Assembly: GCA_963663765.2 (NCBI GenBank)
Contig: CAXXUA010000004.1
Coordinates: forward strand, 992,001-1,056,000
DNA from: Candidatus Poribacteria bacterium
GTDB taxonomy: Bacteria; Poribacteria; WGA-4E; WGA-3G
Reading direction: 5' to 3'
DNA length: 64,000 nt
The position numbers were made by a program, and so were the translations under genes. Shown here piece after piece: positions 20,392 through 41,431 of the stretch; position 1 is the first letter of the stretch; each line of letters opens with the position of its first letter. The notes beneath the pieces are model-generated. The model did no database searches. It was not told the DNA's origin and saw only the letters and a program-made list of their open reading frames with translations.

Positions 20392-20609
20392 TAACGCAAG
20401 TTGCTACCTATAAGGTTTAGACGAATAAACACCGTTTCCTATAGAGTATAATACACTTTTCGGTAGTATTTGTAGCACAAACTGTTAGTTTGTGCATCTT
20501 TATGACGCAAACTAACAGTTTGCGTTACAAAATATAGGCTATTTATCAGACTTTTTTGATAATAGATGGTGTTTCTATGTCTAATTATTGTAGGTAGCAA
20601 CTTGGGTTA
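20392..20609. mobile_element. MITE-like element (TIR AACGCAAGTTGCTACCTA); copy 2
   Basis: Near-identical to 13432-13650. Confidence 0.8.
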
Positions 20610-20627
20610 TTATAGTATTTTGTATAT

Positions 20628-21202
20628 ATGAAAAGCGAAAAAACAGATAAATCCCAAGAACTCCCCCATTCCATCAGTGACGCAGCTTGGAAAAGCCATT
20701 CTCGTTGATAGCACGATGGTGCGTGTCCACTCCTGCTCAGCCGGTGCACCTAAAAAAAGGAGGACAAGAAACACAAGCACTTGGTCGGAGCCGGGGCGGA
20801 TTTACCACGAAACTAAATCTATCTCTCAGCGATGAATGGATACCTCTCAGGTTTACTTTGACAGCAGGACAATGCCATGATATTACGCAAGCATCTGCGC
20901 TGATCAAAGGTTTTTCTTATCTGTATGTGATAGGAGATAAAGCCTACGATTCGGATGCTTTTATAGAGGAGATTGTCTCCAACAATGCGACGGCTGTGAT
21001 ACCGCCGCGCAAAAATCGCACTGAAATACGCACCTATGACAAAGAGTTATATAAACGGCGAAACAAAATAGAACGTTTCTTTCATCAATTAAAACAGTAT
21101 CGTCGTGTAGCAACACGTTATGATAAATACACAGACCGGTATCTCGGTATTGTATATTTCGCATCAATTCTCATAACAATATAAGAATATGTAAACACTA
21201 CC
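20628..21202 (+). pseudogene. Internally deleted IS5-family transposase remnant
   Basis: OrfA start 'MKSEK...ISDAAWK' jumps straight to 'ILVDSTMVRVH..SAGA.KK'; A7GG slip site; OrfB 'LGRSRGGFTTK', 'GDKAYDSD', 'YK.RN.IERFF..LKQYRRVATRYDK'; right end TGTAAACACTACC-TAG; left end not found. Confidence 0.85.
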
Positions 21203-21301
21203 TAGTCAAAAATAAGGCGTGGGACAGATATTGGATGCAACGCCCACAAGCAGCATGAAATTTATAACCAAAACTTTACACACCCGATTCTATTTTATTT
21301 C

Positions 21302-21330
21302 TTGACTCATTTGTAAAACTAAGGTATCGT
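21302..21330 (+). promoter_or_regulatory. Putative sigma-70 promoter of the cas operon
   Basis: TTGACT-17 bp-TATCGT about 50 bp upstream of ATG 21382. Confidence 0.45.
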
Positions 21331-21381
21331 TAAATGACTTAATGATATTTGAAACATTTGATTTATGCAGAGGGACGCAGA

Positions 21382-23244
21382 ATGAACATCTATGTGGGCA
21401 ACGTGCCTTATACAGTAACAGAAAAGGATTTAGAAGAACTATTCAAAAAACATGGCGAAGTAACAAGTGCCAAAATCATAAATCATCTTAACGGCAGATC
21501 CAAGGGTTTCGGCTTCGTAGATATGCCAAACGAAGACCAAGCCAATCCCGCAATGAAAGCACTGGACGGTTCTGAGTTCAGGGGACGTCAATTAAGAGTT
21601 AACCCCGCCCGTCCACTCGGACAACAACGCCGACAATCGACACGGCAACCACAGCAACGACCACCCCGTCCACGTCAAACCGATCCGCCAAAATCCCAGA
21701 CAAAATCTACTGACAAGTTTCATAATCCCTATACCTTTGTGCCGACACCGTCACGCGACAATGTAATAGATCAAGACATTTTCGCCGCAGATTTTGATCC
21801 TCTGAAAAAAGGGCTGAACCACGCAACACTGCAAGATAATCTATGGACAGGACACATTCCGATAAAACTTACCGCCACGACACCATTAGTCCTACTCAAG
21901 AGTGAGGGTAGAGACGAAGACGCAACAGATGCACCCTACAGTGTACATTCACGTATTCCAGAGTCATCCCTGCGTGGCATGCTCCGCAGTGCTTATGAAA
22001 CTATTACGAATTCACGTTACAGCAGCTTCCGAAATAATGAAAAACTAGAATATCGTATGGGAAGAGAGAAACTCCCTTACCCTAAAAGTCCAGACGCGCT
22101 TCTCGATTCCTCGTTGAAACCTGCAAATAAACTTACTAAGTTATCCCCAGCAGACCGATTGTTCGGATGGACACCGCCACCCAACAGTAGTGATAAAAGC
22201 AGTGATAGCGGATACAAGAGTCGACTTCGAATCGTCTGTGATGATGTTGAACCCGCGGATCCCCTAAACCCTTTTCAGGATGACCCACTACCCCTTACTA
22301 TCTTAGGAACACCGAAACCTGAGCAAGGACGTTTTTATGTTGCCAAAGATGACAAAGGAACTCCGCAAGATGATGGTCTCAATAAAGAAGAGGCTGGATA
22401 TAGTAGTGGTAAAGGTTTGCGTGGGCGTAAACATTTCTGGCATCACAAAAATTTAGACAAAGACTATTGGGACCAAACAGGTGATGATAGCACTCGTGAA
22501 TATATACGCGCGAACAGAGAAAAAGACTCTCAAAATCGTAGCATCAATGCTTGGATCAAACCCGACACTACATTTCATGCATCTATATATGTCCAGAACT
22601 TACAGCAGGCAGAAATCGGTGCACTTCTATGGCTTTTAACACTCCCAGACGAATACCATTTCAGACTTGGATACGGAAAACCTTTAGGATTTGGCAGTGT
22701 GAAAATTAAGATTGACAATGACGACTGCCTACCACTTGGCACGTGTTCCGACTGGAAAGCATATTACTCACAACTGGAGGCATCACCTCCTGCTACAATG
22801 GATAAAGCAAAACGAGATGAATGTATCAATAAATTCAAGGATAGTATGGTGTCGGCATATTCACCAAAGCAAGAGAACGATGCAGAAGATGACAGCGACA
22901 TCAAAAAGACCTTATCCAACCTTTCTATGGCAGATCAACTCAAAAGCACACTGGAACAAACATCTGAAGGCAAAGCGGTGCTTGACGAAACGCAGTTTGA
23001 TAAACTCCGTTTTGTTGAGGGGTTCCTACAGGTTCTGAAAGGTCCGGATACGGGCTATCCAATCCATTATCCGCGTCGGAATCGTGAACCTGATGAAAAA
23101 GGTAATAACTATGAGTGGTTTATGGATAATGAGAACGGTAGAAATCGTTATGAAGATGGCGAAAAGCTTGCATTACCAGATGTATCTGACGATGAAGGTT
23201 TACCTTATATTCCATGCAAGCCAAAGCCAAGAAGAAGAAATTGA
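21382..23244 (+). CDS. cas7: RRM domain fused to type III-D Cas7-group RAMP (TIGR03986 / 'Cas7-insertion' type)
   Basis: RNP2 'IYVGNV', RNP1 'KGFGFVDM', then Q/R/P linker, then 'FHNPYTFVP', 'IP.SSLRGMLRS.YE.ITNS', 'LSPADRLFGW', 'LRGRK.FWHH', G-loop 'LGYGKPLGFGSV'. Confidence 0.9.
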   Translation: MNIYVGNVPYTVTEKDLEELFKKHGEVTSAKIINHLNGRSKGFGFVDMPNEDQANPAMKALDGSEFRGRQLRVNPARPLGQQRRQSTRQPQQRPPRPRQTDPPKSQTKSTDKFHNPYTFVPTPSRDNVIDQDIFAADFDPLKKGLNHATLQDNLWTGHIPIKLTATTPLVLLKSEGRDEDATDAPYSVHSRIPESSLRGMLRSAYETITNSRYSSFRNNEKLEYRMGREKLPYPKSPDALLDSSLKPANKLTKLSPADRLFGWTPPPNSSDKSSDSGYKSRLRIVCDDVEPADPLNPFQDDPLPLTILGTPKPEQGRFYVAKDDKGTPQDDGLNKEEAGYSSGKGLRGRKHFWHHKNLDKDYWDQTGDDSTREYIRANREKDSQNRSINAWIKPDTTFHASIYVQNLQQAEIGALLWLLTLPDEYHFRLGYGKPLGFGSVKIKIDNDDCLPLGTCSDWKAYYSQLEASPPATMDKAKRDECINKFKDSMVSAYSPKQENDAEDDSDIKKTLSNLSMADQLKSTLEQTSEGKAVLDETQFDKLRFVEGFLQVLKGPDTGYPIHYPRRNREPDEKGNNYEWFMDNENGRNRYEDGEKLALPDVSDDEGLPYIPCKPKPRRRN

Positions 23245-23281
23245 ATTTCATATAGACTTGCATATGGAGGTAACCTGAACA

Positions 23282-24385
23282 GTGGCAACGCAACTTATCA
23301 TGACTGTCGGCACCAATGCATTACCTATCTGGGTCGCTTGGTATCATCTGAAGGGTAAACTGAAACAACCTGTAAAAGTCCAATTTATCTATACAAATGA
23401 CACGGAACCACAAAGAGACTCATTGCGCAGGTTCTGTGATAACGCACAATTCGGAACAGACATAAAAACGTCGCCAGGGGACCCATCCACCGTCCGTGGA
23501 GATATCAGGAAGCAAATATTGAATTGTTTAGATCAAAAAACGACACATCTTCATGTGCATTACACAAGCGGTACCAAGGTTATGGGGGTTGAGACAGTCT
23601 CAGCTATTGAAGAAAGAATAGCAAACAAAGCTTGCTTAAATTTAGAAACCACTTATTTAGATCCACGCGGTGACAAGGGACCGCGCCTCCTTAGTAGAAC
23701 AAACGTTTATCAAGAAGATGCTCGGATGGGTGTTAAACCAACACTTGATCGCATAGCAAATCTAAACGGATTTACTCCCGCACCTTTTACCCACGAATAT
23801 TGGAACAGAGAAGATAGCAGATGGATTAGAGATGAAAAACTAGCTCCTGCTGAACTTGATCGTGATCAAGAGGCAGATGGAAATAATGTTATAGATAGCA
23901 TGAGGAGAGGAGTGTGGGGCGCTATGGATCCAACACACTTTGAATATGCGGCTTATGTCGCACTTAACCAAGCGCTTGAAGCTATAAAAGCAGCTAATTC
24001 AGAGCGATCCAACTACAGGATCTACCATAATGTGTTTGTCCGAAGAACTAGTGCGGATCAACGGGATAGGATCTTTGAACTGGATGTTGTCGCGGTATTA
24101 GGATATCAAATCCTTGTTGTTTCATGCACACTTGAAACAGGACCTGCGGCGATTAAGGAAAAAGGAATGGAAGTCATCCTACGTTCAAGGCAGCTTGGCG
24201 GTGATGAGGCACAAGCCATCGTTCTCTGCAAAGGCTATTCTGAAATTACAGAACGCGTTGAGAAAGAATTGTACGATGAAATCGGAAGTGCAGGTCGACC
24301 TTTACGGATATGGGGAACAAACAAGTGGATAAAGCTACAAAACGAATTCAAGCAATACTTACGAAATGACCTCCATTGGCACTAA
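23282..24385 (+). CDS. CARF + PD-(D/E)xK nuclease ancillary effector (Card1/Can2, DUF1887-like)
   Basis: CARF 'VGTNALP' and 'YTSGTKVM'; nuclease 'FELDVVAV.GYQ..VVSCT', 'R.RQLGGDEA'. Confidence 0.85.
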   Translation: MATQLIMTVGTNALPIWVAWYHLKGKLKQPVKVQFIYTNDTEPQRDSLRRFCDNAQFGTDIKTSPGDPSTVRGDIRKQILNCLDQKTTHLHVHYTSGTKVMGVETVSAIEERIANKACLNLETTYLDPRGDKGPRLLSRTNVYQEDARMGVKPTLDRIANLNGFTPAPFTHEYWNREDSRWIRDEKLAPAELDRDQEADGNNVIDSMRRGVWGAMDPTHFEYAAYVALNQALEAIKAANSERSNYRIYHNVFVRRTSADQRDRIFELDVVAVLGYQILVVSCTLETGPAAIKEKGMEVILRSRQLGGDEAQAIVLCKGYSEITERVEKELYDEIGSAGRPLRIWGTNKWIKLQNEFKQYLRNDLHWH

Positions 24386-24404
24386 CAGAAAGGCAACAAT
24401 ATCA

Positions 24405-25985
24405 ATGTCAGTAAAATGTATCACACTCCTTGGCACTGTCAGTGTCCAACAATATATCTTTCAGAGCAACAGGTTGAAGGAAATCATCGGCGCATCGTAT
24501 TTGGCAAAACACTGGTTTGATGACGGATTGATTCATGTAATTCAGCAGTCACGACACTCTTTAGATAGAGACGTATGGGACGCATACAAACAGAACCCAT
24601 CCATCACACAATCTGATGTGGAGGAAAACACCGAATCGGATGTCCAGATTATCTACATCGGCGGCGGTAATGCTGCTCTACTCTGCAAGGACAAAGACAC
24701 CGCTGCAGACGTCGTTCAAAAATGGAGTTATGCAATACTCAATAAAGCGCCCGGGCTCCGAGTCGCTGTTGGATTTGGTGAGGTAAACAACTCGTTATAT
24801 AAGGCATACGATGAAGCACGGAAACAACTAAACAAGTGTGAGGAAGCACTCCCTTACGGCGCAGAATTGGGAAGGCTACCTATCATTCGCTCCTGTTCAA
24901 CAACTGGTTTACCAGCAAGTATAAACGCCAGAGAGGAAAACAATCGAGTAATTCGGATATCTAAGGAAGCAGCAAGTAAAAGAGAACAGGTCGGCACAAC
25001 AAACAATCCAGGGAAAGCACGGCAGACTATTACGAAGGAGTTCAAGTCCGTTCTTAAAGAGAACCAACATTTCGCTTCAGATTTTGATGCCGAATTAGGC
25101 GGCGGTGATGGGCATTCCTATATGGCTGTCGTTCACGCAGATGGAAACGGGATGGGTGACCTCCTACAGGCAGCAGTGAAGGGTGCGCCTGAAGATCAAT
25201 TCCTCCATTTCATCAGAAGGTTTTCCGCATCTGTCTCAATGTTGTCTAAAAACGCTTTTGAGAGAACACTCCAACACTTCCAAAATAAGTTAAAGTTGCC
25301 ATTGAAAGGAATCAAAGAAAAGGATAACGTTTTTCCGCTCCGTCCAATCGTCTATGGTGGTGATGATTTGACCTTTGTTTGTGATGGAAGGGTTGGACTG
25401 CACCTAACGCAACACTACCTACAAGAATTCACAAAAGATCCAATAAAAGTCGGGGATGGAGTCAAACACATTGATGCATGTGCAGGTGTCGCTATTGTGC
25501 ATACAAAGTTCCCGATCGCACAAGCCTACAGTTTCGCAGACGAACTCTGTGCAAATGCAAAATCAGAACGTCGTAAGAAGGGCAATCAGAACGGGAGTTG
25601 GATGGATTTTCAGATAGTCCAAGCAGGTGTAACGGGTTCTGTCAACACTATCAGAAACACACAGTATCGCACCTTGACAGGGGCGCAACTTCATCAAAGA
25701 CCCTATCAAGTGCCAGAAAAGTGGACAGTTGTTGTTGAGATCTTGCGCGAGTTCCAATCTGATAAATGGCCGCGGAGCCGTGCGAAAAGTCTCATGCACG
25801 CCCTCACAAAGGGTTCAGATGAAACAGAACGTTTTGTCAAAGCAGCAAATTGGAGAGGTATTGAATTACCATCTGCTGAGGAACGACAGACTGGATGGTC
25901 AGGTGGTATAGAGGAAGAAAAAACAACACCATATTTTGATCCACTTGAGGTACTGGATTACTATCTAAAAGAACTCCTAAATTAA
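24405..25985 (+). CDS. cas10: Cas10, type III-D, no HD domain
   Basis: 'VQQYIF.SNRLKEIIGAS', 'YIGGGNA', Palm2 'VHADGNGMG' and 'YGGDDL'. Confidence 0.95.
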   Translation: MSVKCITLLGTVSVQQYIFQSNRLKEIIGASYLAKHWFDDGLIHVIQQSRHSLDRDVWDAYKQNPSITQSDVEENTESDVQIIYIGGGNAALLCKDKDTAADVVQKWSYAILNKAPGLRVAVGFGEVNNSLYKAYDEARKQLNKCEEALPYGAELGRLPIIRSCSTTGLPASINAREENNRVIRISKEAASKREQVGTTNNPGKARQTITKEFKSVLKENQHFASDFDAELGGGDGHSYMAVVHADGNGMGDLLQAAVKGAPEDQFLHFIRRFSASVSMLSKNAFERTLQHFQNKLKLPLKGIKEKDNVFPLRPIVYGGDDLTFVCDGRVGLHLTQHYLQEFTKDPIKVGDGVKHIDACAGVAIVHTKFPIAQAYSFADELCANAKSERRKKGNQNGSWMDFQIVQAGVTGSVNTIRNTQYRTLTGAQLHQRPYQVPEKWTVVVEILREFQSDKWPRSRAKSLMHALTKGSDETERFVKAANWRGIELPSAEERQTGWSGGIEEEKTTPYFDPLEVLDYYLKELLN

Positions 25986-30538: not shown

Positions 30539-31516
30539 ATGCTCAAAAACTTCCGATTTGCCCGTTACCGACTCACCTACACCGTCCAAGAACCACTAAA
30601 GATGCCAACATACAAAGGCAGCATCTTCCGCGGACGCTTCGGATACCTGCTCCGCCACATCGCGTGTATCGGAGATGCGGGTGAATGCGAAAAAAAGTGC
30701 CAACACGCAGACCGATGCGTCTACTCCAAGTGCTTTGAAACACCTGTTCCTAAAGATAGTCCCATGTTGCGAGGACAACCCTTTGCACCACATCCCTTCA
30801 TCCTTCAGCCACCCTGCACATCTAAGAAGGAATATGTCCGAGACGATACCTTTACTTGTAATATCACGCTCATCGGAGAGGCGATTGACTTGTTGCCGTG
30901 GATTGTGCTGACTTTTCATGAGATGGGTAGACTGCGCATTGGACTTCAAGGGGCACGTGGACAGTGTCGACTGGACACAGTGGAAAGCCTATCCGCACAT
31001 AGCAATCCTCAACCTCAGACAATCTTCACCGCAGAGACCGAGATGCTAACAGATGATGGTATCATACTCAAACTTGACGATGTGATGCACAACACACCCG
31101 ACATCACAGATAAGATGGAATTAGAGTTTATCACCCTTACCAGCATCAAGGTAGATGGAAAATGGGCGAAGGAGTTGACATTTGAACACCTTATTCGTAA
31201 CCTACTCCGACGTATCCGATTTTTGAGCTATTTTCATTGTGGAGAGGATTTAGACGTGGATGCACACGCATTGATTGATGCTGCACGTGCTATTTCACAC
31301 GAATCCCGTTTCCGTTGGCTCAAGTCAAACCGTTATTCTTATCGTGCGGAGAGTTCTATTCCAATGGATGGGTTTATCGGGAAGGTACGTTATATAGGTG
31401 AATTAGGGCAGTTCTTGCCATTCATTTTTCTTGGTGAGTATATGCACATCGGACACCACACAGCGTTCGGATATGGGCAATATAGACTAATCTCACCTGA
31501 GACACCGATTTCGTAG
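30539..31516 (+). CDS. cas6: Cas6 pre-crRNA processing endoribonuclease
   Basis: 'YKGS.FRG.FG', Cys cluster, 'PHPFI', C-terminal G-loop 'HIGHHTAFGYGQY'. Confidence 0.93.
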   Translation: MLKNFRFARYRLTYTVQEPLKMPTYKGSIFRGRFGYLLRHIACIGDAGECEKKCQHADRCVYSKCFETPVPKDSPMLRGQPFAPHPFILQPPCTSKKEYVRDDTFTCNITLIGEAIDLLPWIVLTFHEMGRLRIGLQGARGQCRLDTVESLSAHSNPQPQTIFTAETEMLTDDGIILKLDDVMHNTPDITDKMELEFITLTSIKVDGKWAKELTFEHLIRNLLRRIRFLSYFHCGEDLDVDAHALIDAARAISHESRFRWLKSNRYSYRAESSIPMDGFIGKVRYIGELGQFLPFIFLGEYMHIGHHTAFGYGQYRLISPETPIS

Positions 31517-31561: not shown

Positions 31562-31837
31562 TTGTTTTACATTATCTGTTACGATGTCCCAGACAATAAA
31601 AGGCGGAATCAACTTGCGAAAGCACTAAAGGGATTCGGCACTCGTGTCCAATATAGCGTGTTTGAAGCACAATTAAACCGAAAGCAGTTTAATGAGCTAA
31701 AAAACACAGTTGCTGGTATCATTGATGCTTCAGAAGACTCAATCCGTTACTACGCACTCTGTAATGCTTGCGTGGAACGTATTGAAGTGCCTGCTGTTGG
31801 AGACATAACATCGGAATCGAATACAATTATCGTTTGA
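31562..31837 (+). CDS. cas2: Cas2
   Basis: 'YIICYDV.DNKRR', 'G.RVQYSVFE', 'DSIRYY.LC..C'. Confidence 0.97.
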   Translation: MFYIICYDVPDNKRRNQLAKALKGFGTRVQYSVFEAQLNRKQFNELKNTVAGIIDASEDSIRYYALCNACVERIEVPAVGDITSESNTIIV

Positions 31838-31976: not shown

Positions 31977-32089
31977 CACTAAATTCCCTTCAAACGGGAA
32001 GGACTTTCAGAACTGATTCCTACTTTTATTTCGCGGACCCTCAGAAGCCCAAGTTTCAATTCCCTTCAAACGGGAAGGACTTTCAGAAC
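31977..32089 (-). CRISPR. Inverted mini CRISPR array: 2 repeats, 1 spacer of 39 bp
   Basis: 32053-32089 is the reverse complement of the main repeat with one substitution; 31977-32013 is the same variant with a decayed 3' end; spacer 32014-32052. Confidence 0.9.
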
Positions 32090-32412
32090 TTATAACTTTT
32101 TACTATCCTTTTTTACCTATTTATACCGAATTAACGTGAGTCGTCTTGCTAAGTGTGCGGTTAGGAAACCGCACCTACCGTTGGAAAAAGAAAAATTACG
32201 TTAATTTGGTATTAGACTCTATACAGCTGTCCACTCAATTCTTTATGTTCTTAATAACCCAACACACACTTATGTTCTTCAATAGACACACAAACTCACA
32301 TGTACACAGAAATGGAGGAAACTCATTGTTTAGCCACATTGAAACAACATCTCTAACGAACGAGTTATGTCAACTTAAAAAATATAATTGTTTATACATT
32401 TAGGAGGAACAG

Positions 32413-33405
32413 ATGGCAATACTCTATATCACACAGCAAGGAGCAGTTCTCCATAAATCTGGAAATCGTATCGTCGTTAAAAAAGACCAGGATGTACTGC
32501 AAGAAATACCAATCGTCAAGGTTGACGAAGTTGTCATTTTTGGCAATGGACACATGACGACACAAACAATAGGATTCTTACTTCATAAAAATATACCTGT
32601 TTCATTTCTGTCTTCACAAGGAAAATACAAAGGCAAACTTCAACCGCCTTTTGCTAAAGACACGCTCCTTCGACAGCATCAATATGCAGTTGCACAAGAC
32701 ACACCACAGTGCCTTGAATTAGCAAAATGTTTTGTTCAAGGCAAACTTACCAACGCAATCAGGTTTTCTCTACGACAACGTTCGCAAAATGCTGAAGTGA
32801 AAGCAGCAACAAGCTCAATACGACAAACATTGGAGAAACTTGAGCAAGCCAAGAACCTGGATTCGCTGCTGGGTTACGAAGGAAGTGGCACATCCGCATA
32901 TTATCGGGCATTTAGACAATTCCTCACACGCGATTGGGGGTTTACGACCCGACAATTTCGTCCATCACCAGATCCAATCAACGCCATGCTTTCACTCGGT
33001 TATACGCTCCTACACAATCACGTTTACGCATTCATTAACGTCGTTGGATTTGACCCGTATTGTGGATATTTCCATCAGCCTAAGCATGGACACGCTGCAT
33101 TGGCATCAGATCTGATGGAAGAATTCCGACAAATCATCGTAGATGGATATATTCTGACGCTTGTCAATAACAACAGGATAAAACCGACAGACTTCCAGAA
33201 GACAGAAAAAGGTATTCGCTTTACCAAGAAAGCATTGGATAGTTTCCTCAGTGGATATTATGAGCGAATGCAGCAGACGTTTCAACACCCAAAACAAAAT
33301 GAGAAAACAAGTTATCTTCGTTGTATTGAACTTCAAGTTAGACATTTAGCACGCGTGCTTAGAGGCAAAGAAGCAGTATACAAACCTTTTCTCATTCGTG
33401 CTTAG
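32413..33405 (+). CDS. cas1: Cas1
   Basis: 'LYITQQG..L', 'LLGYEG....Y', 'DPINAMLSLGY.LL', 'DPY.GY.H', 'ALASDLMEEFR..IVD'. Confidence 0.97.
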   Translation: MAILYITQQGAVLHKSGNRIVVKKDQDVLQEIPIVKVDEVVIFGNGHMTTQTIGFLLHKNIPVSFLSSQGKYKGKLQPPFAKDTLLRQHQYAVAQDTPQCLELAKCFVQGKLTNAIRFSLRQRSQNAEVKAATSSIRQTLEKLEQAKNLDSLLGYEGSGTSAYYRAFRQFLTRDWGFTTRQFRPSPDPINAMLSLGYTLLHNHVYAFINVVGFDPYCGYFHQPKHGHAALASDLMEEFRQIIVDGYILTLVNNNRIKPTDFQKTEKGIRFTKKALDSFLSGYYERMQQTFQHPKQNEKTSYLRCIELQVRHLARVLRGKEAVYKPFLIRA

Positions 33406-33769: not shown

Positions 33770-36700
33770 GTTCGGAAAGTCCTTCCCGTTTGAAGGGAAT
33801 TGAAACTCTAAACCTTGTTGTTACAGAGAACGCAGCCGTATCATGTTCGGAAAGTCCTTCCCGTTTGAAGGGAATTGAAACTTGGATCCATAGTATGGTT
33901 CGCCATCTGCTTTATTTTCGTTCGGAAAGTCCTTCCCGTTTGAAGGGAATTGAAACTTTTTGAATATAATCGCCATTGTGTTTCATACTTAAGTTCGGAA
34001 AGTCCTTCCCGTTTGAAGGGAATTGAAACACTTTTTCATTTTCACCGTCCTTTTTGTTCAGAATGTGCGTTCGGAAAGTCCTTCCCGTTTGAAGGGAATT
34101 GAAACTGCATCAATTAGTCCATTAGTCCAAGCTGCTTCAGTTTCCTTGTTCGGAAAGTCCTTCCCGTTTGAAGGGAATTGAAACCCATCGCCTTATTTTC
34201 TCGCGAGCAGACAATTGTGCTTCAGTTCGGAAAGTCCTTCCCGTTTGAAGGGAATTGAAACTATTCTAACAAGCAAGGACAGTGGATTTTCATTAGTTCG
34301 GAAAGTCCTTCCCGTTTGAAGGGAATTGAAACTTAATGAGTTGAAAGAAGGCAATGCGGAACTCATAGTTCGGAAAGTCCTTCCCGTTTGAAGGGAATTG
34401 AAACTTAGAATTAAGAATTGTATTTGTATGAGAATACGTTCGGAAAGTCCTTCCCGTTTGAAGGGAATTGAAACGATACCAAAATACTGAAGTAATTTAG
34501 TAATGCGATTGAGTTCGGAAAGTCCTTCCCGTTTGAAGGGAATTGAAACAGAAATTCCCGAGTAATCACAATAATTTTCTATCACTGTTCGGAAAGTCCT
34601 TCCCGTTTGAAGGGAATTGAAACTTTAATAACCTTATCCATACGATTTATTTCGACAGACTGAGTTCGGAAAGTCCTTCCCGTTTGAAGGGAATTGAAAC
34701 TATATTGCACATATCAGGCAAGTCTCTCTCGTCAGTTCGGAAAGTCCTTCCCGTTTGAAGGGAATTGAAACTTTGTAATACTTCTTCTTTGTATTCTTTA
34801 AAAGCAGTTCGGAAAGTCCTTCCCGTTTGAAGGGAATTGAAACTGCCATTTCTTTCATGAATGATTTGCGTTTTTCAGTTCGGAAAGTCCTTCCCGTTTG
34901 AAGGGAATTGAAACTCAGTATTTAAGTCTATAGTCAAGCCGTGTTCATTAAGTTCGGAAAGTCCTTCCCGTTTGAAGGGAATTGAAACAGTATCTAATTT
35001 CTCATCGAGTATTTCAGTAAGTATTAGGAGTTCGGAAAGTCCTTCCCGTTTGAAGGGAATTGAAACTTATATTCTATAACCCATGTTGTCCGTGTTCGTT
35101 CGGAAAGTCCTTCCCGTTTGAAGGGAATTGAAACTTCCAGTATACCTGCCCATGAATGGTATATCCAAAGTTCGGAAAGTCCTTCCCGTTTGAAGGGAAT
35201 TGAAACCTATTTGAATGTTCCACATCATTGAGTGTAAAGGATTGTGTTCGGAAAGTCCTTCCCGTTTGAAGGGAATTGAAACTGACCCAACATTCGTGGC
35301 TTTTGTCTTAAACCTAAGTTCGGAAAGTCCTTCCCGTTTGAAGGGAATTGAAACTTATCTAAAATGGCATCCTTGAACTTGCTGCGGTTTGTTCGGAAAG
35401 TCCTTCCCGTTTGAAGGGAATTGAAACTTAAATTCAACATCGTCAGGAATTTCAAATGACAAATCAAGTTCGGAAAGTCCTTCCCGTTTGAAGGGAATTG
35501 AAACAAATTGAGGTCGCGGGTTTCTCGGAATTGTTTTGTTCGGAAAGTCCTTCCCGTTTGAAGGGAATTGAAACTTTCACAGCAAGTCTTTGTGCAACTG
35601 ATGCAATTCTTTGGTTCGGAAAGTCCTTCCCGTTTGAAGGGAATTGAAACACAAACGTCCATTCCTACGCAAGAAACGTGAGTTCGGAAAGTCCTTCCCG
35701 TTTGAAGGGAATTGAAACCTAAATCTGTAATCGCATTAATTCTGTCATGCGTTTTGTTCGGAAAGTCCTTCCCGTTTGAAGGGAATTGAAACGACACTTG
35801 AATGCACACTAGCTATAACGGATGACGAGTTCGGAAAGTCCTTCCCGTTTGAAGGGAATTGAAACGAGGGAATTTTACCCATGATATACAGAAATCTTGA
35901 AATGTTCGGAAAGTCCTTCCCGTTTGAAGGGAATTGAAACTTACCGGAATTAATAACTAATCTGTTATTTGATTGTAGTTCGGAAAGTCCTTCCCGTTTG
36001 AAGGGAATTGAAACCGCCACTGACAGCTGGTAGACGGCCTTGAGAAGCTTCGCCGTTCGGAAAGTCCTTCCCGTTTGAAGGGAATTGAAACTAAAAGTTT
36101 TTTTCATCTGGTACCTCTGTTGTTTAGTTCGGAAAGTCCTTCCCGTTTGAAGGGAATTGAAACTTTAGAATTTCGCGTGGATGGAATACTGACGCGTTTA
36201 GTTCGGAAAGTCCTTCCCGTTTGAAGGGAATTGAAACATTATAAAGAAACCTTAGCGGCTGCTGTAGCGGTTTATTGTTCGGAAAGTCCTTCCCGTTTGA
36301 AGGGAATTGAAACCCATGTCAATAGGCATCTTATACTTGCCACTTTCCCAAAGTTCGGAAAGTCCTTCCCGTTTGAAGGGAATTGAAACCCAGCTAACTC
36401 TCCAACTTTATCCAAAACACGGGATAGTTCGGAAAGTCCTTCCCGTTTGAAGGGAATTGAAACTTTGCTTGCGATGTTACTGTTGTCATGTATCTCGGTT
36501 CGGAAAGTCCTTCCCGTTTGAAGGGAATTGAAACTTTGCCGTTCAGCCCTGCAGTCTCAAACGCATTTTTGGTTCGGAAAGTCCTTCCCGTTTGAAGGGA
36601 ATTGAAACTGCGCGTTCAATATTGATTTGATTCATGCGCTCTTGGTTTGCGTTCGGAAAGTCCTTCCCGTTTGAAGGGAATTGAAACAAGCAATTCGTCA

Positions 36701-37863
36701 TCGATGGTGTGTCCACCCGCGGCAGTTCGGAAAGTCCTTCCCGTTTGAAGGGAATTGAAACATGGACTTCGCACAACATTGAATCAAACCAATCGCAGTT
36801 CGGAAAGTCCTTCCCGTTTGAAGGGAATTGAAACCTTCTTCAGATACATTATCAATAGTAAAAACTTCTGAGTTCGGAAAGTCCTTCCCGTTTGAAGGGA
36901 ATTGAAACTTAAATACGTACGTGTACGGATTCACGATTTAAGTTCGGAAAGTCCTTCCCGTTTGAAGGGAATTGAAACGTCATGTTTCTCAATTCGTTCA
37001 TCGTGCTTTCTCCTTAGTTCGGAAAGTCCTTCCCGTTTGAAGGGAATTGAAACTGAAGCAGCCCAAGTCGTCGGTCAATTTACTCAGGCCAGTTCGGAAA
37101 GTCCTTCCCGTTTGAAGGGAATTGAAACTTGATTCCTTGTGATCCGTCTGTGATATTTGTGACAAGTTCGGAAAGTCCTTCCCGTTTGAAGGGAATTGAA
37201 ACTGTTGCTTTATTACAATGTGGTGGCACGGCAATAAGTTCGGAAAGTCCTTCCCGTTTGAAGGGAATTGAAACAGAATGGCACTGCGGCAGACGATTTG
37301 CCTGATAAAAAGTTCGGAAAGTCCTTCCCGTTTGAAGGGAATTGAAACTTGAACGTTAATGGCTGTGTCTGTAGTAAGTTTCGTTCGGAAAGTCCTTCCC
37401 GTTTGAAGGGAATTGAAACTTACACAGCGTGACGTGCAAAAGTTCTATGACTCTTTCCGTTCGGAAAGTCCTTCCCGTTTGAAGGGAATTGAAACTATGA
37501 ACCGCGTGGCAAAGCATCACAAGAAATAAAGTTCGGAAAGTCCTTCCCGTTTGAAGGGAATTGAAACCTACGCTTTTTTAGATTTTTTGCTATTTTTTTC
37601 CAAGTTCGGAAAGTCCTTCCCGTTTGAAGGGAATTGAAACTTGAAGAATATGAACAACTGATATTGAATGAACCGCAGTTCGGAAAGTCCTTCCCGTTTG
37701 AAGGGAATTGAAACTTAGAGGTCGGCGTAAGTTGTGCAATTCGTTCGCGCAACGTTCGGAAAGTCCTTCCCGTTTGAAGGGAATTGAAACAGTCCAACTG
37801 CGGTTCATCGGATCAACGATGATCTTGTTCGGAAAGTCCCTCCCGCTTGAAGGGAATTGAAAC
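33770..37863 (+). CRISPR. CRISPR array, 56 repeats of 37 bp (GTTCGGAAAGTCCTTCCCGTTTGAAGGGAATTGAAAC), 55 spacers of about 31-42 bp
   Basis: Repeats counted by eye; ATTGAAAC 3' handle; last repeat (37827-37863) has two substitutions, which orients the array on +. Confidence 0.99.
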
Positions 37864-38079: not shown

Positions 38080-38790
38080 ATGAACTTCAAACAAAAGTTA
38101 GGATATATGTTTATCGGGTGTCTATTTACAATCGCAGGATACATCCTCGCATCACTGGGTGGAGATACGACACACGCACAACAAAAAGAACAGGTGATTG
38201 ATAAAATCGTTTGTAGAGAGTTGGAAGTTGTTAACGAAAAGGGAAAGGCCGTTGCCAGTATCGCTTCAAGTGTTAACGGTGGGATTATGACAGTCCAGAA
38301 CACTGCAGGAAAGATCGTTGCTGGCATCGCTGTAACTGAACATGACAGTGGGATTATGTCAGTCCAAAACACCGCAGGAAAGGTAGTTGCCTTTATTAGT
38401 GCAACGGATAAAGGTGGGGGTATGTCAATCCAAAACACCGCAGGAGAGGTAGTTGCCTATATTAGTGCAACGGATAAAGGTGGGGATATGTCAATCCAAA
38501 ACACCGCAGGAAAGAATGTTGTTTCTCTCAGGGCAACGGATAAAGGTGGGGGTATGTTAATCCAAAACACCGCAGGAAAGAATGTTGCTGGCATCGGTAC
38601 AACTAAATATGGTGGGATTATGACAGTCCATAACACCGCAGGAAAGATCGCTGTTGGCATCGCTGTAGATGTATATGGTGGGATTATGACAGTCCACAAT
38701 ACCACAGAAAAGGCAGTTGTCAATATCGGTACAACTAAAGATAGCGAAGGTTTTATACGAACCTACAAAGACGGGTGGCGCACTCACTAA
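38080..38790 (+). CDS. Exported/membrane-anchored protein with about 7 tandem 23-24 aa beta-repeats, function unknown
   Basis: Signal-like N-terminus 'MNFKQKLGYMFIGCLFTIAGYILA'; repeats 'GG.M.(V/I)QNTAGK.V..I..T'; GGAGG RBS. Confidence 0.75.
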   Translation: MNFKQKLGYMFIGCLFTIAGYILASLGGDTTHAQQKEQVIDKIVCRELEVVNEKGKAVASIASSVNGGIMTVQNTAGKIVAGIAVTEHDSGIMSVQNTAGKVVAFISATDKGGGMSIQNTAGEVVAYISATDKGGDMSIQNTAGKNVVSLRATDKGGGMLIQNTAGKNVAGIGTTKYGGIMTVHNTAGKIAVGIAVDVYGGIMTVHNTTEKAVVNIGTTKDSEGFIRTYKDGWRTH

Positions 38791-39037
38791 ACTAAAAAAT
38801 GATCACCCAAGAATATCAGCATACATAGTCAAACATTATGATGATATTAAAACACAAAAAAAAGCCGCCAACGCATGGCAGCTTTGAATTCTGTTTACAC
38901 AACTATATTTTAGATACAGATATTTGATTACGGAAAGGTATTATGGGAAGATAAAGAGAGATGCATTCTGTAGAAGCACGGGCAAAATAGTGAGAGCCGA
39001 AAATCCACTATAAATTGTAGTAGATTTTACAATTACC

Positions 39038-39310
39038 TTGACAGGTTGTTTGCAGGAGGGAACTCCGATTCCCGACTTGACAGGTTGTTTGTAGGACGGA
39101 ACTCCGATTCCCGACTTGACAGGTTGTTTGTAGGACGGAACTCCGATTCCCGACTTGACAGGTTGTTTGTAGGAGGGAACTCCGATTCCCAACTTGACAG
39201 GTTGTTTGTAGGAGGGAACTCCGATTCCCGACTTGACAGGTTGTTTGTAGGAGGGAACTCCGATTCCCAACTATCAAGGCGTTCAGTCGCGATTCGGAGA
39301 TCGCTCCTAC
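39038..39310. repeat. Six tandem 39-bp units containing REP GTAGGAGGGAACTCCGATTCCCGAC plus an inverted partner
   Basis: Direct inspection; linkers between REPs are identical. Confidence 0.9.
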
Positions 39311-40722: not shown

Positions 40723-41431
40723 ATACCAATTCTAATCAATTCTGTCTCATACCATTTCCATGTGATAATGTCTCATTAGCAGCGGAAATCTGGTAGGAGC
40801 GCCCTCACGGTCGCGACCGGGAGGTCGCTCCTACCGAAGAGAGTAACCTCTTGCCAGTAAACAGTAGAATTCCTTAATGAGACGAGATTTATTTGAATTG
40901 GTATCTTTAAGGAATTTTATTGTAATTGCTGGTTTGATGACTTCACTTCGGAAGGAGCGCCCTCACGGTCGCGACCGGGAGGTCGCTCCTACCGAAGAGA
41001 GTAACCTCTTGCCAGTAAACAGTAGAATTCCTTAATGAGACGAGATTTATTTGAATTGGTATCATTAAGGAATTTCATTGTAATTGCTGGTTTGATGACT
41101 TCACTTCGGAAGGAGCGCCCTCACGGTCGCGACCGGGAGGTCGCTCCTACCGAAGAGAGTAACCTCTTGCCAGTAAACAGTAGAATTCCTTAATGAGACG
41201 AGATTTATTTGAATTGGTATCATTAAGGAATTTCATTGTAATTGCTGGTTTGATGACTTCACTTCGGTAGGAGCGACCTCCCGGTCGCGACCAGCAAATC
41301 AAGAAATCAACGGTATGAATGCCTTTTGGCATTCCCCGGGTATGAATGCCTTTTGGCATTCCCCGGGTCGCTCCTACATGATCTCTGCAGCTAATGAGAC
41401 ATTATACAATAGAAATGGTATTAGAATTGGT
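40723..41431. repeat. Nested MITE shells containing tandem ~159-bp family A REP units
   Basis: Outer ACCAATTCTAAT...ATTAGAATTGGT and inner ATACCATTTC...GAAATGGTAT inverted ends; three near-identical internal units. Confidence 0.75.

Follow-up and report, generated by a model that had tools for sequence, protein, structure and literature searches.

How should one read a CRISPR effector subunit that begins with a canonical RRM and lacks the insertion domain of its Synechocystis counterpart? The gene lies in the window, the whole stretch of 64,000 nucleotides analysed here from contig CAXXUA010000004.1 of a Candidatus Poribacteria bacterium, and an earlier note on this DNA had proposed that the RRM was recruited to replace the insertion. 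Our preferred reading is that the gene product is the cap Cas7 in a type III-Dv-like CRISPR effector, a three-module subunit that, by homology to Synechocystis, would sit at the crRNA 3′ end; we give this explanation as a whole, including the proposed role of the head, a probability of about 0.6. In its architecture, its distribution, the uncoupling of head and insertion, its mosaicism and its synteny, taken together, we have high confidence.

The listed open reading frame (21349..23244, +) starts with TTG and encodes 631 aa. The ATG at 21382 yields a 620-aa product beginning MNIYVGNV; its N-terminus is as in homologs, and GAGGGA sits 8–9 nt 5′ of this codon (Table 1). The protein scores 247.5 bits, in two stretches, on the NCBIfam type III RAMP family TIGR03986 (cut-off 161.35). 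It aligns by phmmer to the Synechocystis Cas7-insertion subunit (8s9t_E, 795 aa) in three collinear stretches (E 2e-75), and a Foldseek search with the Cas7 core ranks the same chain first (E 4.5e-20). Many columns of the N-terminal part of the core are invariant among relatives.

Table 1. Features of the cas locus and its flank, in window positions
Feature	Coordinates	Strand	Basis or description
IS5-family transposase fragment, 165 aa	20687..21184	+	transpos_IS5_3 E 5e-40, Pfam DDE_Tnp_1
Cap Cas7 subunit gene, 620 aa	21382..23244	+	RRM head, linker, TIGR03986 core without insertion domain
RRM head, residues 1–78	21382..21615	+	Pfam RRM_1, AF2, Foldseek
Linker, residues 79–112	21616..21717	+	Basic, low-complexity, Q/R/P-rich, predicted disordered
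Cas7 core, N-terminal part, residues 113–226	21718..22059	+	FHNPYTFVP ... YRM; aligns to 8s9t_E 101–228
Junction GREKLP, residues 227–232	22060..22077	+	Site of a 222–410-residue insertion domain in relatives
Cas7 core, C-terminal part and tail, residues 233–620 and stop	22078..23244	+	Aligns to 8s9t_E 458–718 and 726–786
Predicted CARF + PD-(D/E)xK ancillary nuclease, 367 aa	23282..24385	+	Between cap Cas7 gene and cas10; PADLOC profiles
Short Cas10, 539 aa	24366..25985	+	GGDD kept; PADLOC Cas10d E 2e-122; Pfam palm2
Cas7-Cas5-Cas11 fusion, 797 aa	26061..28454	+	RAMPs, Csx10 TIGR02674
Cas7-2x, 505 aa	28466..29983	+	Csx7 TIGR02581, 112.8 bits, 4 stretches
Csx19, 224 aa	29862..30536	+	TIGR03984, 64.5 bits (cut-off 35)
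Cas6	30539..31516	+	Pfam CRISPR_Cas6 E 4e-17
Cas2	31562..31837	+	Pfam CRISPR_Cas2 E 3e-26
Cas1	32413..33405	+	Pfam Cas_Cas1 E 4e-93
CRISPR array, 56 repeats of 37 nt	33770..37863	+	Spacers ~31–42 nt

The head is an unmistakable RRM. Residues 3–72 cover the whole of Pfam RRM_1 (PF00076, profile 1–70 of 70, E 1.2e-22, 80 bits against a cut-off of 20.7), and the translation contains both RNP2 (IYVGNV) and RNP1 (KGFGFVDM), so that the in-frame RRM read by the earlier note from the letters is borne out. In the RRM consensus these two motifs carry aromatic residues. Here the aromatics stand at positions 4, 43 and 45 (Y4, F43, F45) and are kept in 65, 66 and 66, respectively, of the 69 RRM heads in our homolog set, a retention that points to selection on the RNA-binding face. 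The AF2 model of the domain (pLDDT ~95) has the beta-alpha-beta-beta-alpha-beta topology (strands 2–6, 29–34, 40–47 and 72–75; helices 14–22 and 51–61), and Foldseek superposes it on RRM structures with an rmsd of 0.8–1.1 Å. Its likeness to a standalone bacterial RRM protein, PDB 7jly, is close (51% identity, rmsd 0.8 Å), and it scores 94.9 bits on NCBIfam NF058537 'Rbp_regulator', just below the cut-off of 100. Unlike standalone RRM proteins, it is joined to a Cas7 core, with a disordered linker between the two. The linker matches the ~34-residue Q/R/P stretch previously described; AF2 pLDDT stays below 50 across residues 80–117, and linker identity between relatives is 14–62%, being higher only in recombinant near-identical pairs.

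The cap gene stands first in an operon whose order (headed Cas7, CARF-PD-(D/E)xK nuclease, Cas10, Cas7-Cas5-Cas11, Cas7-2x, Csx19) is kept in all 13 related loci, which come from Poribacteria, Latescibacterota and Binatia MAGs (L002–L014). The four other effector subunits are collinear homologs of those of Synechocystis III-Dv, as the earlier note had said. Cas10 is 29% identical over 494 aa to its 558-aa counterpart, YGGDDLT included, and no HD-domain family was found in it in Pfam at E up to 0.01; Cas7-Cas5-Cas11 matches the 791-aa Synechocystis protein (E 1e-11 over 652 aa), Cas7-2x is 26% identical over 336 aa to a 522-aa protein (E 1e-23) and Csx19 matches one of 186 aa (E 9e-6). Because the listed Csx19 frame overlaps the Cas7-2x gene, the real start codon probably lies further in; residue 51 is where the profile match starts. 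The cap proteins share a plan as well, an N-terminal head of ~110 residues followed by FHNPY.FVP and the core. The two operons differ in that the cap gene is last in Synechocystis, and in that the adjacent CARF gene is there Cas_APE2256. The definition of type III-Dv also includes a complex of fixed stoichiometry that cleaves target RNA at three sites.

The 367-aa frame after the cap gene is found at the same position in 13 of 13 related loci. It matches the PADLOC profiles Csx1 PDLC01512 (E 5e-43, best stretch residues 3–162) and CARF4--CARF_PDDEXK PDLC01885 (E 4e-38, best stretch residues 238–355), with no Pfam or NCBIfam family above threshold; on these profiles it is a CARF-PD-(D/E)xK ancillary nuclease, with a predicted N-terminal CARF and C-terminal PD-(D/E)xK domain. 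A split or frameshifted cas10 had been suspected because the frames at 23282–24385 and 24366–25985 overlap in different phases, and was rejected: the 539-aa frame spans nearly the full Synechocystis Cas10. Homology to the gene that follows TIGR03986 in Synechocystis, which is the Cas_APE2256 gene, was likewise set aside (BLASTP E 1.4).

We also considered whether the fusion of RRM and Cas7 could be an assembly artefact. A 6018-nt contig in assembled runs X1 and X4, from two studies, spans 21231–24500 with no differences, indels or joints, and the same architecture recurs in 69 of the best 120 homologs among 1789 matches; the fusion is thus neither an artefact nor peculiar to this contig. Just upstream of the operon, the IS5 fragment covers profile positions 110–257 of 258. 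Multi-copy sequence ends at about 21203–21286, where the contigs of both runs break and where depth is 2–4 times that of the cas gene. A promoter scan of 20500–21500 gave 2 sites against 3.7 expected, and thus no promoter evidence. RNA-library runs X6 and X8 each contain one identical 278-nt contig (22715–22992, depth 3), which does not prove transcription. The seven RNA runs X6–X12 have word shares of 12–14%, which give no evidence of habitat.

What is missing from the core can be placed precisely. Query residues 98–227 align to 8s9t_E 101–228 and residues 233–487 to 458–718, so that the ~229 residues of the insertion (8s9t_E 229–457) have no counterpart and the six residues GREKLP stand in their place. 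ITNSRYSSF (residues 208–216) and LSPADRLFGW (254–263) are separated by exactly 37 residues, the distance previously given as approximate. The same 11-residue junction spacing occurs in 34 of the 37 insertion-less proteins among the best 120 of 1789 homologs, and insertion-less proteins in the junction alignment carry a GR[EK]K-type motif.

PMC11026444 agrees with the earlier note in placing the Synechocystis subunit at the crRNA 3′ end, which it caps, and in giving it a large insertion; this insertion cradles the seed. A Cas7-insertion subunit is defined by this seed-cradling domain inside the Cas7 fold, and the present protein lacks the trait. The Synechocystis seed contacts F307, I355, K396, R400 and I453 all lie in the segment replaced here by six residues. 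Of the 83 homologs with an insertion, 81 conserve F307 and all conserve I355 and I453; in all 37 homologs without one, these three positions fall in gaps. F767, which stacks on the crRNA in Synechocystis, has its counterpart here in Y577; an F or a Y occupies this position in all 83 homologs with the insertion and in 36 of the 37 without it. Type III-E Cas7-11/gRAMP proteins show local similarity to the core (NCBIfam gRAMP, 94 bits; PDB 7zol, 7x7a and others). In the accounts available, the insertion of Cas7-11/gRAMP and of type III-D2 Cas7x3 likewise lies within the last Cas7 domain; these are domains of single large fusions for which the same accounts describe no free N-terminal head, whereas the present protein is a separate subunit with the insertion naturally absent.

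One could suppose that the insertion-less allele is a loss-of-function deletion, carried by an effector on its way out in which the RRM is irrelevant. In Synechocystis, mismatches in the seed that the insertion holds largely abolish target binding (PMC11026444, in the text available), and here an IS5 fragment abuts the operon. We nevertheless judge decay to be quite unlikely: insertion-less proteins make up 37 of the best 120 homologs, with the shared spacing noted above; all four insertion-less loci in genomes (L002, L003, L004, L014) keep the same operon order with every gene open; and the locus itself retains intact Cas1, Cas2 and Cas6 and a 56-repeat array in which 55 repeats are exact and the last has two mismatches. 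The core, moreover, is highly conserved, including the F767 equivalent, and the same available text, citing its ref. 33, states that the homologous insertion of type III-E can be truncated with activity unaffected.

Did the RRM then take the place of the insertion? The census that bears on this covers the best 120 of 1789 matches, query included, scored over the whole protein, which favours RRM-headed and insertion-less forms. An RRM occurs with the insertion in 55 proteins and without it in 14; a cold-shock domain (CSD) occurs with it in 26 and without it in 22; three have no head or another one. The combination seen here is thus a minority of RRM-headed forms (14/69), and the caution voiced earlier that cold-shock heads occur in this family was well placed, since 48 of these 120 carry one. 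Both head types and this insertion-less junction recur among the relatives from Poribacteria, Latescibacterota and Binatia (L002–L014; P0002–P0120), whose core identities are 51–76%. The type of head and the presence of the insertion vary independently of each other.

A functional trade would have the RRM make up for the missing insertion, for instance by gripping the crRNA 3′ end or by seeding target binding in its stead. This would fit the co-occurrence of RRM and missing insertion in the present protein. The head and the insertion are also near in space, each forming one side of the complex's top in the description of preprint 10.1101/2022.06.13.496011, and a linker of ~34 residues is long enough to reach. 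Against this, RRM-headed proteins mostly retain the insertion (55 of 69), while 22 of 48 CSD-headed proteins and one headless protein among the same best 120 lack it. P0002, the closest relative in the set (76% identical in the core), carries an RRM as well as the insertion; across nine phylogenetically independent RRM/CSD contrasts the insertion state is unchanged in ~8.4; and locus L015 has neither head nor insertion. Synechocystis, too, combines an N-terminal 112-residue domain with the insertion, so the RRM fills the head slot and not the place of the insertion. We conclude from the independent variation among relatives that the RRM did not replace the insertion, contrary to the original proposal, and we rate a functional trade as highly unlikely.

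If head and insertion are uncoupled, how are they reassorted? Several pairs of homologs are mosaics. P0014 and P0067 have cores 98–100% identical, with an RRM on one and a CSD on the other, and strongly diverged insertions. P0039 and P0066 agree at 222 of 223 residues up to the junction and at 68% after it, and only one of them has the insertion; P0097 and P0115 form another natural insertion-less/insertion-bearing pair with near-identical cores. The core tree requires at least 19 changes of insertion state, and a single insertion-less clade is rejected by the AU test (lnL difference 977, p 1.4e-5). Counted in 60-column windows of the alignment, insertion changes fell from 28–29 to 5 beside the junction and rose again to 24–28, and head changes were lowest (8) beside the head. 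Linkage decays with distance from the junction. These patterns point to homologous recombination across strongly conserved core motifs as the process that reshuffles head and insertion. Some of the mosaics could be chimeras made in assembly from co-occurring strains, since metagenome contigs are the source of many homologs. A second paralog or silent cassette was rejected as a source: the window's genome has a single TIGR03986 gene, with no match in it to the insertion of P0002 (residues 224–508), and five other genomes (G001–G005) have one locus each.

In PMC11026444 and the preprint, residues 1–112 of Synechocystis Cas7-insertion, which fill the head slot, are 'uncharacterized', flexible and absent from the map, and we found no Pfam family for them. 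The slot is thus occupied by an uncharacterised domain in Synechocystis, by an RRM in the present protein and by an RRM or a CSD in the Poribacteria/Latescibacterota/Binatia lineage. The sole head deletion that we found in the literature is the Synechocystis delta-104 construct, to which the available text of the preprint gives one ambiguous sentence ('were necessary for cleavage'). Cyanobacterial-type heads were aligned for 21 of 22 proteins (L022, by eye without the shared pattern, was left out). The AF2 model is beta-rich (pLDDT 74); its best VIA Z-score is 4.3 (Unr cold-shock domains, EF-P), with no chain at Z ≥5, its best Atlas score is 0.82, and hhalign gives a probability of 5.8% to CSD heads and 0.3% to RRM heads. 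No recognisable RNA-binding fold was found in the head of the cyanobacterial relatives by VIA or hhalign, so the slot may not hold an RNA binder in every case.

For the lineage studied here, we propose that the head would act as a tethered, sequence-non-specific ssRNA antenna near the crRNA 3′ end, a role in which RRM and CSD heads may be interchangeable. By catching transcript RNA next to the crRNA 3′ end, or by unfolding it there, the head would make encounters with targets more frequent. We put this antenna function at about even odds. Standalone RRM proteins and cold-shock proteins are both families of RNA chaperones. The head might alternatively serve regulation or localisation, by binding the cas or pre-crRNA transcript (autoregulation, loading) or by anchoring the complex at ribosomes or at the 3′ ends of mRNAs. 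The near-threshold score on 'Rbp_regulator' is consistent with such a role, as are the standalone RRM genes, 57–59% identical to the head, in the window's genome and in three of five related genomes; an RRM protein from cyanobacteria is reported to associate with ribosomes and with the 3′ ends of mRNAs (PMC12232666). Yet RRM and CSD heads are swapped on nearly identical cores, which favours a generic ssRNA-binding role over a specific partner, and we regard the regulatory or localisation role as rather unlikely.

As to the other module, the six-residue GREKLP 'null' allele would take away the pocket in which Synechocystis pre-orders its 3′ seed, so that in the present complex the final crRNA nucleotides probably stay free or are trimmed; seeding in an insertion-less complex would then work differently. 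Signalling looks intact, judging from the GGDD kept in Cas10 and the predicted CARF-PD-(D/E)xK nuclease encoded in the operon.

More speculatively, head and insertion, at the top of the III-Dv complex, could be a solvent-exposed, exchangeable accessory kit moved between lineages by recombination on a near-invariant Cas7 core, with RRM and CSD acting equivalently as RNA-chaperone antennas through which structured or nascent transcripts reach the crRNA 3′ end. The widespread insertion-less allele would then mean that the seed cradle of Synechocystis is dispensable or replaceable, and the shuffling might be driven by phage conflict, for example by inhibitors, or by features of RNA, that target the cap. 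We offer this only tentatively and think it more doubtful than the antenna role by itself.

In our literature search, outside which most subscription journals fell, we found no paper describing a type III Cas7 headed by an RRM or a cold-shock domain; the one paper found to mention TIGR03986, PMC3936711, says nothing on domains in the text available. In the III-Dv complex that has been studied, the N-terminal domain is uncharacterised and the insertion is proposed to pre-order the crRNA seed, and the present lineage bears on both. Because the head is an unmistakable ssRNA-binding domain in many relatives, RRM or CSD, it provides a first concrete hypothesis for the head slot. Nature has also supplied a two-by-two set, an RRM or CSD head each with and without the insertion, in some cases on almost identical cores, so that what each module contributes to target search, seeding and cOA signalling is directly testable. 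A compact cap subunit with a tethered RNA binder may interest engineers of RNA-targeting type III or Cas7-11-like tools. The pattern of recombination singles out the cap as a surface of a type III effector that evolves fast.

The ATG at the head of the cap Cas7 gene opens a frame of 620 amino acids whose N-terminus, MNIYVGNV, recurs in all RRM-headed homologs, with GAGGGA 8–9 nt 5′ of the start codon. By profile criteria the product belongs to two families: Pfam RRM_1 covers residues 3–72 over its full 70-position profile with E 1.2e-22 and 80 bits (cut-off 20.7) and NCBIfam TIGR03986 scores 247.5 bits (cut-off 161.35). The in-frame RRM–Cas7 fusion described in the earlier note is real, and the spacing reported there is exact: 37 residues lie between ITNSRYSSF (208–216) and LSPADRLFGW (254–263). 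An assembly artefact does not account for the fusion, since a 6018-nt contig from public runs X1 and X4 (two studies) spans it with no differences, indels or joints; the homolog search also recovered the architecture in dozens of independent sequences. In an AF2 model built from a 120-sequence homolog alignment, A2 (mean pLDDT 65.7), the RRM has a pLDDT of about 95 and beta-alpha-beta-beta-alpha-beta topology, the linker (80–117) falls below 50, and residues 223–232 form a low-confidence hairpin. Foldseek ranked 8s9t_E, the solved Synechocystis III-Dv Cas7-insertion chain, first (E 4.5e-20), followed by type III-E structures, and matched the RRM to RRM structures with an rmsd of 0.8–1.1 Å. RNA-library runs X6 and X8 of two studies, one of them labelled a sponge metagenome, share an identical 278-nt contig internal to the gene, which hints at expression but falls short of proof.

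The insertion that defines the Synechocystis subunit is missing from the window protein. Residues 98–227 align to 101–228 of 8s9t_E and residues 233–487 to 458–718 (of 795 aa), so that about 229 residues of the chain correspond to GREKL. Likewise, in homolog alignment A1, GREKLP stands between 'YRM' and 'Y.KSP', where long homologs have about 275 more residues. Two reports (PMC11026444; preprint 10.1101/2022.06.13.496011) describe the Synechocystis subunit as capping the complex where the crRNA 3′ end lies. According to the former, the insertion forms a positive pocket in which six 3′ crRNA nucleotides are held as a seed, contacted by F307, I355 and I453 from the insertion and F767 from the core, and seed mismatches largely prevent target binding. 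The insertion-borne contacts are gone in 37/37 insertion-less forms, and the core aromatic equivalent to F767 is kept in 36 of them. Because activity survives truncation of the homologous type III-E insertion, as the same paper states (PMC11026444), a functional insertion-less cap is plausible by analogy.

The earlier note had proposed that the RRM was traded for the insertion, a reading that the data do not support and that we judge to be wrong. Our search returned 1789 homologs at E <= 1e-3; for a census of the best 120, heads were classified with purpose-built HMMs and insertion state was scored from the alignment. Among these 120, RRM heads occurred with the insertion in 55 proteins and without it in 14, cold-shock domain (CSD) heads in 26 and 22, respectively, and three proteins had no or another head; 80% of RRM-headed proteins thus keep the insertion, and its loss is commoner under a CSD. 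The closest relative among the matches listed, P0002 (76% identity over 493 core columns; sister, support 99), carries RRM and insertion together. An IQ-TREE core tree (499 columns, head and insertion columns taken out) contained nine independent RRM-versus-CSD contrasts, and insertion state was unchanged in about 8.4 of them. Finally, L015, a protein from a Bacillota MAG, lacks head and insertion alike. We therefore conclude that the RRM takes the place of an ancestral head, not of the insertion. Two RRM-headed proteins, P0037 and P0095, have an enlarged insertion of 405–410 residues versus 222–298 in the others. A standalone RRM protein with an open frame of 157 aa is encoded in the same genome as the window (G000:C6:303083-303349) and shares 59% identity with P0002's RRM head.

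Neither an RRM nor a CSD head was found in 42 more distant TIGR03986 loci scored (cyanobacteria, actinomycetes, planctomycetes and others), 22 of which have an N-terminal extension of 80–140 residues. The 21 extensions aligned share a conserved beta-rich domain, for which we obtained no family or fold assignment, followed by a low-complexity linker; it spans ~80 residues with the pattern ...EVEFE..GQ..K.RE.G..W (L017–L057, e.g. L020:9719-10051). It is matched in position by residues 1–112 of the Synechocystis subunit, called 'an uncharacterized domain' and missing from the map (PMC11026444; preprint 10.1101/2022.06.13.496011). The N-terminal 113 residues of that subunit matched no Pfam family. 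The preprint treats this domain and the insertion as forming the two flanks of the head of the complex; its section 10 describes a delta-104 N-terminal construct in wording that is ambiguous, maybe by a slip, on whether cleavage requires these residues.

Each effector subunit of the operon has a collinear homolog in Synechocystis III-Dv. The order of the first six genes, from head-Cas7 to Csx19, is kept in 13/13 RRM/CSD-clade loci, of which two break off early at a contig end. According to their record titles, these loci come from MAGs of Candidatus Poribacteria (8), Latescibacterota/Latescibacteria (4) and Binatia (1); five heads are RRM, seven CSD and one truncated, and the insertion is absent in four. 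The nuclease gene that separates cas10 from the cap Cas7 gene, present there in all 13, had no Pfam or NCBIfam match above threshold, and PADLOC alone recognised it. Upstream, contigs from public runs break at elevated depth, and therefore a multi-copy IS end adjoins the operon about 100–180 bp 5′ of the start codon. The inverted repeat pair between cas2 and cas1 could represent a mini-array with a single spacer, or a remnant.

Features of the window, with operon order where applicable
Order	Feature	Position	Strand	Details
	Region with truncated IS5-family transposase ORF	20687-21286		5′ of operon
	Ends of public-run contigs	21203-21286		depth 2-4x cas gene
	6018-nt contig (X1, X4)	21231-24500
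1	RRM-Cas7	21349..23244	+	ATG at 21382
	278-nt contig (X6, X8)	22715-22992
2	CARF-PD-(D/E)xK nuclease	23282-24385	+	367 aa
3	Cas10			GGDD kept
4	Cas7-Cas5-Cas11
5	Cas7-2x
6	Csx19
7	Cas6
8	Cas2
	Inverted CRISPR repeat, two copies	31977-32093	-	76 nt apart; one with 1 mismatch to array repeat
9	Cas1
10	CRISPR array			56 repeats
	Tandem repeat blocks	38213-38743, 38998-39309, 40792-41292		3′ of array; periods 66 nt, 39 nt, 158 nt; 158-nt copies 97-98% identical

Judging from the sequences, recombination shuffles the head and insertion modules. On the core tree, insertion state must change at least 19 times (by FastTree and by IQ-TREE), and at least 10 switches between RRM and CSD are required. 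Junction spacing is exactly equal in 34 of the 37 insertion-less proteins among the best 120 of 1789, and those aligned in A1 have a GR[EK]K-type junction motif. Constraining the 37 to a single clade lowered the log-likelihood by 977 units (AU p 1.4e-5; the trait defined the group, although it was named once a first tree had been seen). When 60-column windows were slid along the core with junction residues removed, insertion-state changes numbered 29, 28, 18, 5 (flanking the junction), 10, 18 and up to 24–28 at the C-terminus, and head changes were minimal (8) in the window adjoining the head. Such a pattern is the linkage decay that recombination should produce when the null allele has arisen only a few times. 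P0014 (RRM) and P0067 (CSD) combine essentially identical cores with unrelated heads and strongly diverged insertions; P0039 (without insertion) and P0066 (with it) are identical at 222/223 positions before the junction and 68% past it. In the near-identical, CSD-headed P0097 and P0115, insertion presence is almost the sole difference and the junction is not of the common GR[EK]K kind, which suggests either a separate recent deletion, so that fresh losses also occur, or an assembly artefact. Metagenome assembly chimeras could lie behind some mosaics. Within-genome paralogs were rejected as their source, with one locus each in the window's genome and five others.

RRM and CSD families are both generic ssRNA binders and RNA chaperones, and the RNA-binding aromatic residues are conserved in 65–66 of the 69 RRM heads among the best 120 of 1789 homologs. 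The head would be held by the disordered basic linker to the first Cas7 strand of the cap, at the end from which the complex begins to pair with its target. Because the two heads are also swapped on near-identical cores, the simplest reading is that the head would act as a non-specific ssRNA antenna, capturing or unfolding transcripts beside the crRNA 3′ end. The Cas7 family and the system type are already known; our literature search, incomplete in coverage, found no paper on type III-D caps that lack the insertion or bear an RRM or cold-shock head. What appears to be undescribed, and is testable, is a modular, recombining cap whose heads are predicted to bind RNA interchangeably and whose seed cradle has a naturally occurring null allele.
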